Positions 1-5,887 of a DNA stretch of 5,887 bases are shown here, one piece after another. The notes under the pieces are model-generated. The model saw only the letters and a program-made list of their open reading frames with translations, searched no databases and was not told the origin of the DNA. The DNA is from Escherichia coli (GTDB lineage Bacteria; Pseudomonadota; Gammaproteobacteria; Enterobacterales; Enterobacteriaceae). Each line of letters opens with the position of its first letter. The stretch's first letter is position 1. Location of the stretch: the NCBI RefSeq assembly GCF_003334815.1, contig NZ_QOWO01000070.1; one strand, 5' to 3'. The translations under genes were made by a program, and so were the position numbers.

Positions 1-95
1 ATCGACGATTGCTGGAAAGGCTGGGCCATACTCCTCCGGCAGAAGCAGAAAAAGCTTATTATGCTTCCATCGGAAACAATGATCTGGCAGCCTGA
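1..95 (+). CDS. C-terminal 31 codons of IS3-family transposase OrfB (partial; 5' end outside window)
   Basis: Reading from base 3 gives RRLLERLGHTPPAEAEKAYYASIGNNDLAA then TGA at 93..95. This is the same as the C-terminus of the 290-aa ORF at 3770..4642 except for one D to N change. Confidence 0.8.
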   Translation, partial: RRLLERLGHTPPAEAEKAYYASIGNNDLAA

Positions 96-112
96 GTTCA
101 CAGATAAAACAC

Positions 113-137
113 TCTCCAGGAAACCCGGGGCGGTTCA
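113..137. repeat. Terminal inverted repeat (IRR) of IS629-like copy 1, about 25 bp
   Basis: The reverse complement of the terminus, TGAACCGCCCCGGGTTTCCTGGAGA, matches the IRL at 5811 (TGAACCGCCCCGGGAATCCTGGAGA) at 23 of 25 positions. Exact IR length is approximate. Confidence 0.65.
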
Positions 138-145
138 CTTCCCAA

Positions 146-179
146 CCATAATATTTCTGTCATTTCTGCCCCCTATTAT
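146..179 (+). promoter_or_regulatory. Putative promoter of the phytase-like gene: a perfect Pho-box half-site CTGTCAT (157..163), a 10-bp spacer, and a -10-like TATTAT (174..179)
   Basis: CTGTCAT is the 7-bp PhoB half-site consensus, and its spacing to the -10 resembles PhoB-dependent promoters. The distal half-site (146..152, CCATAAT) is weak, and no canonical -35 is present. Confidence 0.25.
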
Positions 180-226
180 GACGTTGTTTTTACTTCTGAG
201 CGATAACAACGAAAAGAGACAATGAC

Positions 227-1570
227 ATGCACAACTCCAAAATCCGACAAGCTGTACTGGTTGGATGCATGACGCTGAGCGCTAACCTGTGGGCCGAAGC
301 GCAGCCGGTGCAGGCAACGCTGGCTGGGCATGCACTGTTGCCAGTAACATCCGCCGTTTCAACTCCGAAGGATGCGCCGAGCGATCTGCAACAGAGCGGC
401 AAATACACCAGCGGCAAACGCGTCACCGAGCTGGGCAGCGTGGCGGGCAAATCCGCAGATCGTCTGACTGGACTCGGCCTGCCGATCAACGGTCAGCCGT
501 TGCAGGGCCACTCAGGTATCAAACACATGCCCGACGGTACCTACTGGGTGCTGACTGACAACGGCTTCGGCAGCAAAGCCAACTCCCCGGACGCCATGTT
601 GTACCTCAACCACTACAAAATCGACTTCAAAGACGGCACGGTAGTACCGCTGAAGACGCTTTTCCTGCATGATCCGGATAAGAAGGTACCGTTCCACATC
701 ATCAACGAGAGTACCGAACAGCGCTATCTGACCGGCAGCGATTTTGATCCCGAAAGCTTCCAGTTTTCCGACAATGCCTTATGGATCGGTGATGAGTTCG
801 GTCCTTACCTGATCAAGACCGACCTGAACGGCAAGGTGCTGGCGGTGTTCGATACTGAAGTGGATGGAAAGGTGATTAAATCGCCGGACAACCCGACGCT
901 GACCCTACCTGGCGCGCCGGACGGCAAGCAGAATTTCCAGGTTGCGCGTTCCAAAGGCTTTGAAGGCATGGCCATCTCGCCGGACGGCAGTAAGCTGTAT
1001 CCGCTGTTGGAAGGGGCATTGTGGGACGGTGAGCAGTTCGAGAACGTTGGCGGAAAACGCTACCTGCGTATGCTGGAGTTCGACGTCAAACAGCAGGTCT
1101 GGACTGGTCGCAGCTGGCAGTACGTGCTGGAAGACAACCAGAACGCCATCGGCGACTTCAATATGATCGATGACACCCACGGGCTGGTGATCGAGCGCGA
1201 CAACGGCGAAGGCACTACGGATAAAGCCTGCGTCGTCGGTGCGCCGACCAACAACTGTTTCAGTCAAGTAGCCAAGTTCAAACGAGTGTATAAAATCGCT
1301 TTCTCGGACACTAACGTCGGTAAACCTGTCGAAAAACTGAGCTATATCGACCTGATGAATATTCAGGATCCGAACAAGCTGGCACGCAAGCCGCTGAGTG
1401 ACGGTGTGCTGACCTTCCCGTTTGTCACCATCGAGAACGTGGATGTGGTTGACGCGAACCACATTATTGTAGGCAACGATAATAACTTCCCGTTTTCCTC
1501 CAGCCGCTGGCCTAATATGGCGGATGACAACGAGTTTATTCTACTTAATGTGAAGAATTTTCTGAAGTAG
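227..1570 (+). CDS. Sec-secreted phytase-like beta-propeller protein (esterase-like activity of phytase type family), 447 aa; function uncharacterised
   Basis: Long ORF with an N-terminal Sec signal peptide (hydrophobic core LVGCMTLSANLWA followed by EAQ) and a weak RBS (AAGAGA) 8 nt upstream. Repeated motifs (DNGFG, GDEFGP, FEGMAISPDG, ERDNGEG, GNDNNFPF) look like the phytase-like fold. The family call is from memory, not a search. Confidence 0.7.
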   Translation: MHNSKIRQAVLVGCMTLSANLWAEAQPVQATLAGHALLPVTSAVSTPKDAPSDLQQSGKYTSGKRVTELGSVAGKSADRLTGLGLPINGQPLQGHSGIKHMPDGTYWVLTDNGFGSKANSPDAMLYLNHYKIDFKDGTVVPLKTLFLHDPDKKVPFHIINESTEQRYLTGSDFDPESFQFSDNALWIGDEFGPYLIKTDLNGKVLAVFDTEVDGKVIKSPDNPTLTLPGAPDGKQNFQVARSKGFEGMAISPDGSKLYPLLEGALWDGEQFENVGGKRYLRMLEFDVKQQVWTGRSWQYVLEDNQNAIGDFNMIDDTHGLVIERDNGEGTTDKACVVGAPTNNCFSQVAKFKRVYKIAFSDTNVGKPVEKLSYIDLMNIQDPNKLARKPLSDGVLTFPFVTIENVDVVDANHIIVGNDNNFPFSSSRWPNMADDNEFILLNVKNFLK

Positions 1571-1792
1571 GGGGGAGATCATCTCATCGCTTACCTTAAA
1601 ACTATCATAAGGGTTTACTTCCCTTCAGCGGCGCACAAGGCGCAGGCTTCTGGCTTTCAGTCTTATCCAGGAGGAACATACTGAAAGGCCTGAGTAAACA
1701 TGAATAAAAGGAATATTATATAACAGATGATTCTAAACCACGCGACAAAGCGTTGAAGGAAGCCTGCGCGCAGCATGACGGGGCTTTACCAT

Positions 1793-1826
1793 AAAAAAAC
1801 GCAGGCTAACCGCGCCTGCGTTTTTT
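1793..1826. terminator. Bidirectional rho-independent terminator shared by the convergent phytase-like gene and phoX
   Basis: A perfect 8-bp GC-rich stem (ACGCAGGC at 1799..1806 pairing with GCCTGCGT at 1814..1821) with a 7-nt loop, flanked by an A7 run (1793..1799) and a T6 run (1821..1826). It lies 20 bp downstream of the phoX stop. Confidence 0.8.
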
Positions 1827-1845
1827 ATGACGGATGAAGCAGAAA

Positions 1846-3825
1846 TCAGGTGCCGATCATACCGCCGTCGGCTTTCACGATAACGACGGTTGAGGAACGC
1901 GGACGACTGGCCTTATCGCCGTCGGGCCAGCTTGATACTGCCGTCGGATGCTGCGGATCGCTCAGCCCTTCGGCTGGCTCGCCAGGGTGCTGGATGTTAA
2001 TAAACAGCGTCCGGTTATCCGGCGTGAACGCGATGCCGGTGATTTCGCAGCCACGCGGGCCGGTCAGGAAGCGGCGAAACTCGTTGGTACCGGGGATCGT
2101 CGCCACCATCTGGTTGTTGCCCATGCCTTCGTAATCTTTACGGTTGATGGTTGATGACGACACGTCGGTCTGGATCCACAGCACGCCGCGGTGATCGAAG
2201 CTCAGGCCGTCGGCGCTGCCGAATTCCGCGCCCTTCATGCTACCTTTGGCTTCCGGTTTGTCAGTATCGGTGCGACCGCCCATCACCAGAATATCCCAGG
2301 CGAACTGCAGCGCGGTCGGGTCGCCGTTCTGCTCCAGCCAGTGAATGATGTGACCGTAAACGTTTTTGCCGCGCGGGTTGGCCGCATCCACCGGCGCTTT
2401 GCCTTCCTTACCGCGATCGCTGTTGTTGGTGAGCGTGCAGTAAACGCTGCCTGTGTGGTATGGATCAACCGCAATCCACTCCGGGCGGTCCATTTTGGTG
2501 GCGCCCACGGCGTCTGCCGCCAGACGGGTTTTAATCAGCAGGTCGCCCTGGTTTTCAAAGCCTTTGCTGGCGTCAAGCCCGTTTTGGCCGAACACCAGCG
2601 GTAGCCACTCGCCTTTGCCGTCATCGTTAAATTTCGCCACATACAGCGTGCCTTTCTCCAGCAGGCGCATGTTGGCTTTGCGATCCCGCGGGTTGAATTT
2701 GCCTTCCGAGACAAATTTATAGATGTATTCGAATTTCTGGTCATCGCCCATATAAACCACAACGCGGTTATCCGGGGCGAGCGTCACCGCCGCGCCTTCG
2801 TGCTTGATGCGGCCAAGCGCGGTGTGCTTGCGCGGCACTGAATGCGGATCGTATGGATCGATTTCCACCACCCAGCCGAAGCGGTTCGGCTCGTTCGGCG
2901 TGACGTCAACGCTGAAACGCTTATCCACTTCGTTCCAGCGGTAAGAGCCGTCGCTGTCGCTGATGCCGTAACGTTTTTCCAGCGGGTTCATCTCCGCTTT
3001 TTTCACGAAAATATCGGACCAGTTCTCTTCGCACGTCAGATAGGTGCCCCACGGCGTAAAACCGTTGGCGCAGTTCTGCATGGTGCCGAGAATGGTTTCG
3101 CCTTTCGGATCGTCAGCCGTTTGCATCAGCGGGTTATGCAGCGCCGGGCCGGTGATTTTCATCGGCGTGTTAACGGTGATGCGGCGCGCGAAAGATGACG
3201 GGCGCACCACTTCCCAGCCCTGGGCCGCTTTTTTTACTTCAATGACCGACACGCCCATTGCGTTCTGTCCTTTCAGCGCTTTATCAGCGCTCCAGTTGGC
3301 ATCGCCATCTTTAAACAGCAGACCGTTATCGATGTATTCATGGTTCATGGCGAGCAGGCCGTGATCGACGCTGTGCCCGCCCTGCGGCAGGCTAAACCAC
3401 GCCATACCGTCGTGGTGCATCCCGGCCTGCGCCGCCTGCTCTTCCGTGGTGTTGCTGCCGTCGGTTTTAAAAACCGGCTGATTCCCGGCAAGCCCGGTGG
3501 CGTCGCCCCATTTGTATAAGGGCTTCGCGATGTAGCCTTCCGGCACGATAACGGTATCTTCCGTGGAAACCGGCAGACTGGTGAAACCGAGCGCCGTCGC
3601 TTTGCCGAGGTTACCGCTTACGCTGGAGACCGCTTTCGCCAGCGCGTTTTCCGGTTTCAGCAGAAACGGGAACGTTGCCGCGGCACCGGCGACCGCGCCT
3701 GTCTGTAACAGGCGGCGGCGCGACAAATAGACTTCCGCCACCTGCGAAAACGCGCGGTTATCACTCGGGTTGCTGGTCTCTTCACTATGCTCACGTTTGA
3801 ATAAAGTTTTTAACGATCTGCCCAT
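1846..3825 (-). CDS. phoX: PhoX-family alkaline phosphatase/phosphodiesterase, Tat-exported, 659 aa
   Basis: N-terminal twin-arginine motif LSRRRLLQTGAVAGAAATFPFL followed by an AxA-type cleavage region (ALAKA). Size and beta-propeller-like composition are typical of PhoX, including a WGTYLTCEENW motif. An RBS (AAGGAAA) lies about 8 nt upstream of the ATG at 3825. Confidence 0.8.
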   Translation of the reverse strand: MGRSLKTLFKREHSEETSNPSDNRAFSQVAEVYLSRRRLLQTGAVAGAAATFPFLLKPENALAKAVSSVSGNLGKATALGFTSLPVSTEDTVIVPEGYIAKPLYKWGDATGLAGNQPVFKTDGSNTTEEQAAQAGMHHDGMAWFSLPQGGHSVDHGLLAMNHEYIDNGLLFKDGDANWSADKALKGQNAMGVSVIEVKKAAQGWEVVRPSSFARRITVNTPMKITGPALHNPLMQTADDPKGETILGTMQNCANGFTPWGTYLTCEENWSDIFVKKAEMNPLEKRYGISDSDGSYRWNEVDKRFSVDVTPNEPNRFGWVVEIDPYDPHSVPRKHTALGRIKHEGAAVTLAPDNRVVVYMGDDQKFEYIYKFVSEGKFNPRDRKANMRLLEKGTLYVAKFNDDGKGEWLPLVFGQNGLDASKGFENQGDLLIKTRLAADAVGATKMDRPEWIAVDPYHTGSVYCTLTNNSDRGKEGKAPVDAANPRGKNVYGHIIHWLEQNGDPTALQFAWDILVMGGRTDTDKPEAKGSMKGAEFGSADGLSFDHRGVLWIQTDVSSSTINRKDYEGMGNNQMVATIPGTNEFRRFLTGPRGCEITGIAFTPDNRTLFINIQHPGEPAEGLSDPQHPTAVSSWPDGDKASRPRSSTVVIVKADGGMIGT

Positions 3826-4642
3826 TGCGGTTTCCTTTCAAAAAATCGATTTCAAGGGGAATCATTTTTATGCACGTGAGTCTACGGAAAGTATGTTACA
3901 GAAATATAATGAGATACAGCGCGTATACGATGAAAATCATCAGGTGTACGGTGTGCGTAAAGTCTGGCATCAGTTGTTACGGGAAGGAATCAGGGTGGCC
4001 AGATGTACAGTGGCGCGCCTCATGGCGGTTATGGAACTTGCCGGTGTTCTCCGGGGTAAAAAGGTCCGCACAACCGTCAGCCGGAAAGCCGTTGCCGCAG
4101 GCGACCGCGTAAACCGTCAGTTCGTGGCAGAACGTCCAGACCTGTTGTGGGTGGCTGATTTTACTTACGTCAGCACATGGCAGGGCTTTGTTTATGTGGC
4201 GTTCATCATTGATGTGTTTGCCGGATACATCGTGGGATGGCAGGTCTCATCGTCCATGGAAACGACATTCGTGCTGGATGCACTGGAGCAGGCGTTGTGG
4301 GCCCGTCGGCCGTCCGGCACAATTCATCACAGCGATAAAGGCACTCAGTATGTATCGCTGGCCTACACGCAGCGGCTTAAGGAAGCCGGATTACTGGCAT
4401 CAACAGGAAGTACTGGTGACTCGTATGACAACGCGATGGCGGAGAGCATCAATGGTCTTTACAAGGCGGAGGTAATACACCGTAAGAGCTGGAAAAACCG
4501 GACAGAAGTGGAGCAGGCCACACTCACGTGGGTGGACTGGTATAACAATCGACGATTGCTGGAAAGGCTGGGCCATACTCCCCCGGCAGAAGCAGAAAAA
4601 GCTTATTATGCTTCTATCGGAAACGATGATCTGGCAGCCTGA
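3770..4642 (+). CDS. IS3-family transposase OrfB (DDE integrase core), 5'-truncated fragment; the first 45 or so codons of this ORF are not IS-derived, so it is probably non-functional
   Basis: DDE-type motifs are present (WVADFTYV, HHSDKGTQYVS, AESINGLYKAEV) and the C-terminus LERLGHTPPAEAEKAYY is typical of IS3-family OrfB. There is no upstream orfA or frameshift window, and the ORF's 5' end overlaps the phoX start on the other strand. Confidence 0.8.
   Translation: MLVSSLCSRLNKVFNDLPIAVSFQKIDFKGNHFYARESTESMLQKYNEIQRVYDENHQVYGVRKVWHQLLREGIRVARCTVARLMAVMELAGVLRGKKVRTTVSRKAVAAGDRVNRQFVAERPDLLWVADFTYVSTWQGFVYVAFIIDVFAGYIVGWQVSSSMETTFVLDALEQALWARRPSGTIHHSDKGTQYVSLAYTQRLKEAGLLASTGSTGDSYDNAMAESINGLYKAEVIHRKSWKNRTEVEQATLTWVDWYNNRRLLERLGHTPPAEAEKAYYASIGNDDLAA
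3864..3901 (-). promoter_or_regulatory. Candidate phoX promoter: -10-like ATAAAAAT with a weak Pho-box-like CTGTAACATACTTTCCGT about 12 bp upstream (on the phoX-sense strand)
   Basis: Position and spacing relative to the phoX ATG are plausible. The proximal half-site matches the consensus poorly. The site lies at the junction with the truncated IS copy. Confidence 0.2.
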
Positions 4643-4684
4643 GTTCACAGATAAAACACTCTCCAGGAAACCCGGGGCGGTTCA
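3905..4684 (+). mobile_element. 5'-truncated IS3-family (IS629/IS1203-like) copy 2: the 3' roughly 60 percent of the element, with IRR but no IRL and no orfA
   Basis: Recognisable OrfB sequence starts around EIQRVYDENHQVYGVRKVW (about 3911) and runs to the terminus ...CGGTTCA at 4684. Upstream of about 3905 the DNA is the phoX 5' region. The left boundary is approximate, give or take about 15 bp. Confidence 0.8.
4660..4684. repeat. Terminal inverted repeat (IRR) of IS629-like copy 2
   Basis: Same terminus as 113..137. Similarity to 1..137 ends exactly after TTCA at 4684. Confidence 0.65.
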
Positions 4685-4705
4685 CAATTTTCTTCAACTG
4701 CAGGA

Positions 4706-4735
4706 CCTGACGGAAAACAAGTGATTTCCGTCAGG
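4706..4735. repeat. Perfect 11-bp inverted repeat (hairpin) CCTGACGGAAA / TTTCCGTCAGG with an 8-nt loop, 21 bp outside the IS629-like right end
   Basis: The two arms are exact reverse complements, read directly from the sequence. No U-run follows on either strand, so it is not a canonical intrinsic terminator. Confidence 0.6.
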
Positions 4736-4951
4736 GAGAAATCGCTTAGCGGGTGTTATCGCAGAAATTCCCACGGAGCCCCATCAACGCCAACCGGTGT
4801 ATATTTCATTTGTGGAGTCTCCAGTCTGAGGGAGCTTTATGCATCCCGTATTGGGCACTATGATGCCGGAAATCTGCGAGGCTCCACACCTGCCAGTTTC
4901 ACCCTTTTAACCATCATACTGCTCCGTGTTTAATTGTGTGGGATGCGTTCA

Positions 4952-5122
4952 TTACATTTTCACCATTTTGCCACTGCGGCCCCGGAAGACGAAGATATGC
5001 CCGGAGAACGGGTCATCTTTCAGCGTGTTCTGCACCTTCGAAGCTAGGCCGTTGAAGCCACAACGCATATCTGTGATGCCAGCGATGATCCAGATTCTGG
5101 TACCGGTCGGCAGCGTTATCAT
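4952..5122 (-). CDS. tnpB: IS66-family TnpB (orf2), truncated: 56 aa where about 115 aa is expected
   Basis: My own translation of the minus strand gives MITLPTGTRIWIIAGITDMRCGFNGLASKVQNTLKDDPFSGHIFVFRGRSGKMVKM then a stop, carrying the IS66 TnpB hallmarks (TDMR.GF.GL, DPFSGH.FVFRGR). Its ATG overlaps the upstream ORF's TGA as ATGA, the usual IS66 orf1/orf2 coupling. No frame continues the TnpB sequence beyond 4952. Confidence 0.7.
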   Translation of the reverse strand: MITLPTGTRIWIIAGITDMRCGFNGLASKVQNTLKDDPFSGHIFVFRGRSGKMVKM

Positions 5123-5796
5123 CGGATCCCCCCTTTCATTTCGCGAATGAGCACCCTAAGAAGTTCCGGAGTGAGAGGGGCAAACAGTTTTACCACACCT
5201 GATTTAAGATGCAGCTCACACTGTGGTGAGTCTACGGTAGTGTCACTCTGGCTTTCATCAGACTTATTTCGCCAGAAAGGATTTGTCACCGGTTTGACGG
5301 GGTCAGGAGTCTCAGTGATTGCCACCGGAACGGCCTGGCATTCCTGGAGATCCTCATCATTCAGCAAGCCCTCTTCATACAGTCTTTTCCAGTTAAACAA
5401 CAGATTGTCATTAATATTGTGCTCTCTGGCGATCCGTGCAACGACTGCACCAGGCTGTAATGCCTGTTTTACCAGCCTGATTTTAAATTCACGACTGTAG
5501 GAGGTTCGTCGTTCTTTTCGCCATGTGCTTTCGCTGATTTGAGGATCATCAGGTAATTCCTTCTTTCTGTTGGCATAAAGTATGGCATCGAGTTGGGCGA
5601 CTGAAAGTGATTCAGGTAATGGCCAGGTAATACCGGAGGCATTAAATCGTTGAAAGAGATTATGAATGGTGGAATGACTGAGACCTAACTGCAGGGCGAT
5701 AGCCCGGACAGATAATTGCTCGTCGAATCTTAGACGTAATGCGTCTGGCAAATAAGAGCGAAAGCCGGTGATATCTTTTGCTGTCTGAGAATTCAT
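5119..5796 (-). CDS. tnpA: IS66-family TnpA (orf1)-like HTH protein (C-terminal 130 aa or so) with an N-terminal 90 aa or so resembling an IS21-family IstA HTH; a possible in-frame chimera
   Basis: The C-terminal part (RRTSYSREFKIRLVKQALQPGAVVARIAREHNINDNLLFNWKRLYEEG ... ELHLKSGVVKLFAPLTPELLRVLIREMK) has the IS66 orf1 HTH and C-terminal pattern and is translationally coupled to tnpB. The N-terminal part (LSVRAIALQLGLSHSTIHNLFQRFNASGITWPLPESLSVAQLDAILY) resembles the IstA N-terminus with its WPLP motif. Both calls are from memory. Confidence 0.6.
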   Translation of the reverse strand: MNSQTAKDITGFRSYLPDALRLRFDEQLSVRAIALQLGLSHSTIHNLFQRFNASGITWPLPESLSVAQLDAILYANRKKELPDDPQISESTWRKERRTSYSREFKIRLVKQALQPGAVVARIAREHNINDNLLFNWKRLYEEGLLNDEDLQECQAVPVAITETPDPVKPVTNPFWRNKSDESQSDTTVDSPQCELHLKSGVVKLFAPLTPELLRVLIREMKGGIR

Positions 5797-5810
5797 CGTT
5801 CGTGTCCATC

Positions 5811-5835
5811 TGAACCGCCCCGGGAATCCTGGAGA
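5811..5835. repeat. Terminal inverted repeat (IRL) of IS629-like copy 3
   Basis: Matches the reverse complement of the right-end termini at 23 of 25 positions. Confidence 0.7.
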
Positions 5836-5863
5836 CTAAACTTCCTGAGAAAGAGGTAAACAG

Positions 5864-5887
5864 GATGACTAAAAATACTCGTTTTTC
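5864..5887 (+). CDS. N-terminus of IS3-family OrfA (MTKNTRF...), partial at the window edge
   Basis: An ATG 53 bp inside the IRL with an upstream AGAGG. MTKNTRF is the start of the IS629/IS1203-type OrfA as I remember it. Confidence 0.7.

Follow-up and report, generated by a model that had tools for sequence, protein, structure and literature searches.

What has inserted itself immediately upstream of a 225-aa open reading frame near the right-hand end of an Escherichia coli contig, and did its arrival destroy the end of the element to which that frame belongs or only displace it? The window analysed here (the whole stretch of DNA, 5,887 nucleotides) closes with 77 nucleotides (5811-5887, plus strand) that correspond to positions 1-77 of the 1,310-bp insertion sequence IS629/IS1203, of the IS3 family, before running off the window. 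As references we used the copy annotated in RefSeq as 'IS3-like element IS1203 family' in an O157:H7 chromosome (L006:1822-3131, 1,310 bp) and a full-length 1,310-bp IS629 variant on an E. coli plasmid (L027, NZ_CP025917.1). The terminal stretch agrees with the former at 76/77 positions without gaps (L006:1822-1898; E=2e-34) and with the latter at 77/77, and the exact 77-mer is found in thousands of E. coli records. Its first 25 nucleotides, the left inverted repeat (IRL) TGAACCGCCCCGGGAATCCTGGAGA (5811-5835, plus strand), start with 5'-TG, are identical to the IRL of both references, and form an inverted repeat with the IS629-like right ends at 113-137 and 4660-4684, to which 23 of the 25 positions (92%) are complementary. 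The ATG at 5865 falls on IS position 55, the annotated orfA start in both references, and 5865-5887 (plus strand) translate into the first seven codons of orfA plus two bases; the seven visible residues, MTKNTRF, are those that open OrfA of L027. By these alignments the stretch is a genuine IS629 left end, with a similarity far beyond chance. The earlier sequence-only reading had named an IS629-type left end 14 bp upstream of the reading frame, and both the identity and the coordinates are borne out: the repeat begins at 5811, and the minus-strand ATG of the 225-aa frame, read directly from the sequence, occupies 5794-5796, so that the two genes diverge. The name 'copy 3' given to this end overreaches, as what is present is a stub of 77 nucleotides at the end of a contig. 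We suggest, with a probability of about 0.8, that the stub is the left end of an IS629 that arrived by ordinary, strain-specific transposition into an already broken element of the IS66 family.

How much of this picture is cut short by the assembly can be judged from the two ends of the window taken together. One common 1,310-bp variant of IS629 contains both terminal 77-mers exactly. The left end belongs to an IS629-like copy (copy 1, 1-137, plus strand, in the same orientation as the stub) that spans IS positions 1174-1310 including the right inverted repeat and agrees with IS1203 in L006 at 135/137 positions and with the L027 variant at 136/137; the single mismatch with the latter lies at window position 78, the first base past the initial 77-mer. 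Each end of the window thus consists of exactly 77 nt of generic IS629, which is what a de Bruijn assembler run at k=77 leaves where unique sequence meets a collapsed multi-copy IS; the window therefore resembles an entire short-read contig, and the features at its ends likewise look truncated by assembly rather than by biology.

The reading frame beside the stub had been taken for a chimera containing an IS21-like fragment, and this part of the sequence-only reading is overturned. The 225-aa product (5119-5796, minus strand) matches the NCBIfam model NF038385 (IS66_access_TnpA) end to end with 293 bits against a cutoff of 150, its residues 12-206 covering profile positions 1-189 of 190, and identical or near-identical proteins bear the RefSeq name 'IS66-like element accessory protein TnpA'. 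Pfam places HTH_Tnp_1 at residues 95-164 and a generic N-terminal helix-turn-helix at 23-56. Downstream, a 56-aa frame (4952-5122) holds the 5' fragment of an IS66-family tnpB (4956-5122, minus strand), which begins with an ATG at 5122, in a 4-nt overlap with the tnpA stop, and scores 57.3 bits against NF033819 (IS66_TnpB; cutoff 50) over profile positions 1-47 of 90, the rest being cut off by ISEc11. The TnpC DDE transposase is absent from the window and present in an intact relative (L005:980-2536). This relative, a 2,712-bp tnpA-tnpB-tnpC element sitting within an IS100 istB, has the ends GTAAGCGCACCG… and …CGGAGCGCTTAC with terminal repeats GTAAGCGC…, and is flanked by an 8-bp target duplication, CTTCATGA; its positions 1790-2644 correspond to window 4956-5810 at 98.6% identity over 855 nt. 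The same DNA occurs in approximately 25 complete E. coli records, where RefSeq annotates it as tnpA, a tnpB fragment and ISEc11.

That IS21 could have been suspected at all is due to a weak likeness between the N-terminal helix-turn-helix of the frame and those of IS21 transposases (NF033546, 16.7 bits, E=0.0039), from which one might suppose that the frame has an IS21-like 5' part and that the IS629 insertion removed the 5' sequence and terminal repeat of that element. However, this score is far under the cutoff of 160, reflects generic helix-turn-helix similarity confined to the N terminus, and involves residues that lie inside the 293-bit match to IS66 TnpA. Furthermore, the full 225-aa protein is found unchanged in intact IS66-family elements that possess tnpB, tnpC, GTAAGCG repeats and an 8-bp duplication, and neither the IstA catalytic (rve) domain nor IstB of IS21 was found in the window with Pfam and NCBIfam. 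We therefore consider an IS21 chimera extremely improbable. Given the TnpA equivalog match and the intact relative, the frame is a normal, intact IS66-family tnpA in which IS21 plays no part, and the annotation that it calls for is IS66 TnpA, not an IS21 chimera. Upstream of it the window retains a 14-bp remainder of the IS66 element (5797-5810, minus strand; CGTTCGTGTCCATC), identical to L018:12571-12584, L018 being one of the sibling contigs described below.

The siblings are draft E. coli contigs of the same architecture, found by searching for exact copies of two proteins of the window, TnpA and the phytase-like protein. Window 1-5810 is 100.000% identical to L018:6775-12584 and likewise to L025 (5,810/5,810, no mismatches or gaps), and ten further sibling places are 99.94-100% identical across the compared portion. 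Where the window has IS629, all twelve places continue AATATAGATGGACGCGATTG…GGAGCGCTTAC, the next bases being AATATAGATGGACGCG…; that is, …GTGTCCATC is followed by the 68 bases AATATAGATGGACGCGATTGTTGCCAGACAGGACAACCATCACAAGACGTTACAGACGGAGCGCTTAC, which terminate in the IS66 terminal repeat (…GCGCTTAC). The GTAAGCG… repeats expected of the family thus lie outside the window, and are found 68 bp past the insertion point in the siblings, and in L005. The right-hand flank of the siblings then carries an H-NS/StpA-like gene, a CxxCxxCC-domain gene and a gene for a 1,370-aa Peptidase_S6 serine-protease autotransporter. Identity between window and siblings ends exactly at the first IS629 base, as expected of a joint made by a transposase, and of 555 complete-genome E. 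coli records that have this IS66 end, most pass the insertion point without a break and reach the GCTTAC terminus. Since the siblings are identical to 1-5810 and proceed over 68 bases to a normal IS66 terminus, this comparison identifies them as the empty site of the IS629 insertion, and since these otherwise identical plasmid backbones are without IS629, the insertion would be a recent, lineage-specific event.

The junction itself gave no match as a 34-nt pattern in IMG/VR, the GTDB representative genomes or the JGI metagenomes, nor by BLAST in 5,426 complete E. coli genomes and PLSDB. Its absence from all of the collections searched, together with the resemblance of the window to a whole short-read contig with ends in a collapsed repeat, is what could be said for an assembly artefact, in which unique sequence was misjoined to a repeat node and IS629 does not adjoin position 5810 in the genome. 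We hold this to be most improbable. A de Bruijn misjoin requires a shared k-mer, for which reason it would not hit the terminus of a transposon precisely, but here the join falls precisely on the outermost nucleotide of the IS, and 5734-5810 shares no sequence with the IS end. Moreover, comparison of the stub with the 5' end of copy 1 as it stands in the siblings shows 2 mismatches in 77 positions, which speaks against a fold-back of the assembly onto the neighbouring copy.

A genuine insertion can be placed in what is known of the family. IS3-family elements move by copy-out/paste-in through a circular intermediate with abutted ends that is excised by OrfAB, and they integrate by a 3-4-bp staggered cut that leaves 3-4-bp target duplications; the precise terminus at 5811 fits this mechanism. 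In the course of events that we propose, an E. coli plasmid carried a degenerate IS66-family element, and IS629 would have entered its left end between ...GTGTCCATC and AATATAGATGG...; this point is separated by 14 bp from the start codon of tnpA, on its upstream side, and lies 68 bp within the element as counted from its terminal inverted repeat. Because IS629 makes target duplications of 3-4 bp (PMC3271280), the ATC at 5808-5810 is a plausible candidate for a 3-bp duplication. Simple insertion would put ATC (or CATC) and the 68-bp IS66 end beyond IS629, and the predicted right junction would read …GGGGCGGTTCA, then ATC, then AATATAGATGG…, with the right end of IS629 giving way to ATC (or CATC) and AATATAGATGGACGCGATTGTTGCC. 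This predicted junction, allowing a spacer of 0-8 nt, gave no matches in IMG/VR. We infer a full-length copy with ATC (or CATC) duplicated on its far side and the 68-bp IS66 end next to it.

Had the end of the IS66 element been lost after all? The sequence-only reading considered the 5' sequence and terminal repeat on this side to be gone, which is probably wrong, as the siblings keep the 68-bp end and, in a comparable case, an insertion merely displaced it. In that case (L001), a different IS3-family element, with ends TGAACTGCGCCCC…, sits 5 bp further along, is flanked by the 4-bp duplication ATAT, and has the remaining IS66 end intact on its far side. A second precedent is the exact IS629 variant in L027 (L027:1601-2910), which is bordered by a clean 3-bp duplication, ATA. 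The L027 copy lies in the IS66-family element ISEc47, between tnpB and an upstream transposase gene, a second case of IS629 within an IS66 element; in general, IS629 commonly inserts beside or within other mobile elements (PMC3271280).

Alternatively, IS629 may have transposed here and then been followed by an adjacent deletion, inversion or homologous recombination, in which case the 68-bp end and the downstream genes would truly be gone and no duplication would be present. Such an outcome would have parallels, since of the 47 IS629 sites that Rump et al. describe from four O157:H7 genomes no more than 21 had matching duplications of 3-4 bp, and IS629 showed no sequence-specific target, so that later rearrangement at IS629 copies is common (PMC3271280). 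The locus itself also contains a 5'-truncated copy 2 and, in the siblings, an internally deleted hybrid copy 1, and the directly oriented IS629 ends that flank the window constitute a substrate for recombination. However, the right-hand flank is kept in all twelve sibling places, and both comparable insertions, in L001 and L027, are clean and have duplications. Later rearrangement is thus conceivable but rather unlikely in our judgement, and simple insertion, with the 68-bp IS66 end merely displaced, is the probable course.

For the host element, the insertion would have mattered little. According to our reconstruction the IS66-family element was dead beforehand, through ISEc11 in tnpB and then through the breakpoint 4782/4783, and as tnpC and half of tnpB had already been lost, the insertion would be functionally neutral for it; it would detach tnpA from its upstream region, with no other obvious functional effect. 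A scan of 5600-5887 for sigma-70-like promoters and terminators returned none, leaving a hybrid or outward promoter that drives tnpA unsupported, and no Rfam family reached its gathering threshold anywhere in the window. None of the three partial IS629-like copies of the window keeps the region of the IS3 frameshift pseudoknot.

The insertion is the latest layer of a stack. The first layer is the IS66-family element, and the second ISEc11 (IS110 family), which entered tnpB in a configuration common to many plasmids and chromosomes; a full ISEc11 splits tnpB in L003, and the first ~173 bp of ISEc11 remain in the window (4783-4955, minus strand, aligning to L003:3501-3673; RefSeq name 'IS110-like element ISEc11 family transposase'). 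The breakpoint 4782/4783 is the third layer; the greater part of ISEc11 disappeared there, as did the remainder of tnpB, all of tnpC and the element's right end, and what was left became joined to an unannotated plasmid backbone segment of 98 nt (4685-4782) that flanks copy 2 and whose right boundary is the deletion or recombination joint. L023 (AP045059), which shares this plasmid backbone, matches window 1-4782 and then diverges, and the matches to ISEc11 and IS66 begin at 4783. The 5'-truncated IS629-like copy 2 is a further layer, and the latest is IS629 at 5811. The sequence-only reading had counted at least three layers of IS insertion or deletion within about 1.2 kb; the count stands, and the identities were partly wrong, IS66 having been taken for IS21 and ISEc11 having been missed.

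Several further features of the stack deserve mention. At the breakpoint 4782/4783, which is without microhomology, the plasmid backbone is joined to the ISEc11 transposase gene at its codon 9. The 98-nt segment occurs in 145 plasmids and includes a near-perfect hairpin (4706-4735; CCTGACGGAAAACA/TGATTTCCGTCAGG, 2-nt loop), and a 77-nt stretch including this hairpin occurs twice in L023. Copy 2 (3911-4684, plus strand) comprises IS positions 537-1310 and is 5'-truncated; it matches NF033516 (transpos_IS3) over profile positions 137-369 of 369, is 94.4% identical to IS1203 (L006) and agrees with the L027 variant at 733/774 positions, being an older and more divergent IS629-like copy. In the siblings, copy 1 (L018:6015-6911) measures 897 bp and is an IS629-like hybrid with an internal deletion, in which IS positions 1-368, at 99.2% identity, are joined to positions 782-1310 at 95.5%, which suggests recombination between two diverged IS629 variants and then deletion. 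The possibility that the stub and copy 1 are the two halves of one IS bridging a circle was ruled out, as ATC precedes the IRL and CTT follows the right inverted repeat; the two differences in 77 described above set the stub apart from copy 1 as well. Finally, in L026 (CP167118.1) a complete IS66-family element with tnpA, tnpB and tnpC (L026:11942-14471) is inserted in the tnpA itself, identity to the window stopping at window position 5168 and resuming at 5157; this is a fourth kind of IS nesting at this locus.

The insertion point coincides with a structural feature. Just upstream of the IS66-family tnpA the empty site contains the palindrome TCGTGTCCATC-AATATA-GATGGACGCGA (L018:12574-12601), with 11-bp arms and a 6-nt loop, of which the window retains the left arm (5800-5810); as single-stranded DNA it would fold into a hairpin of -10.2 kcal/mol (z -3.96). 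IS629 has inserted where the left arm meets the AT-rich loop, and two different IS3-family elements lie within 5 bp of each other at the AT-rich centre of this palindrome, namely IS629 in the window and, in L001 and plasmids related to it, the ATAT-duplicated element. The breaks in H102 and H103 fall there too. One might speculate that the palindrome is a preferred, structure-dependent target for IS3-family transposases, in which case one IS family would systematically disable another. We regard this idea as unlikely: there are only two insertions, which may be a coincidence. The palindrome might serve as an operator or form a minor hotspot of insertion.

With regard to its surroundings, the window carries a two-gene module consisting of a phytase-like esterase (227-1570) and a PhoX phosphatase (1846-3825, minus strand), which is found in IncF-type and other plasmids of E. 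coli and E. albertii. The module recurs at ≥99% identity in many such plasmids in differing surroundings, and seems to behave like composite-transposon-like cargo. Two-partner-secretion and autotransporter genes lie nearby in the siblings. The window thus comes from the accessory DNA of large E. coli plasmids. The earlier suggestion that such a hotspot often marks the boundary of a plasmid or island is correct to the extent that a plasmid accessory region is involved; there is no mark by which the junction would be an island boundary and not simply one more mosaic joint. The main structural effect of the insertion is the addition of a third IS629 homology tract. Because window 138-5810 is bracketed by directly oriented IS629 ends, the phytase-like/PhoX module could be mobilised or lost by recombination. 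In itself, the IS629 insertion is useful at most as a lineage marker.

Compared with known systems, each of the elements in the stack has a counterpart. IS66 elements of the IS679/ISEc47 type have the gene order tnpA-tnpB-tnpC, GTAAGCG… ends and an 8-bp duplication, and the tnpA and tnpB fragment of the window match the corresponding models, whereas tnpC and the right end are missing and the left terminal 68 bp are separated by IS629; as tnpC is lacking, the window holds a remnant and not a functional member of the family. The ISEc11 segment at 4783-4955 is the same ISEc11 end at the same tnpB position as in the approximately 25 complete E. coli records, but the window keeps only ~173 bp of it, the transposase gene being cut after nine codons at 4782/4783. 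IS629/IS1203, which belongs to the IS3 group of the IS3 family and occurs in E. coli and Shigella, produces its DDE transposase through a programmed -1 frameshift. The window differs from annotated copies in showing 77 nt, with the frameshift site, orfB, the right end and the duplication lying outside it, and its insertion site is in none of the collections searched. It is a known IS at a new, strain-specific site, reached by ordinary transposition. From the 25-nt terminal repeat through the 5' untranslated region to the start of orfA it is in register with the annotated 1,310-bp copies, and the joint lies exactly at the terminus of the IS.
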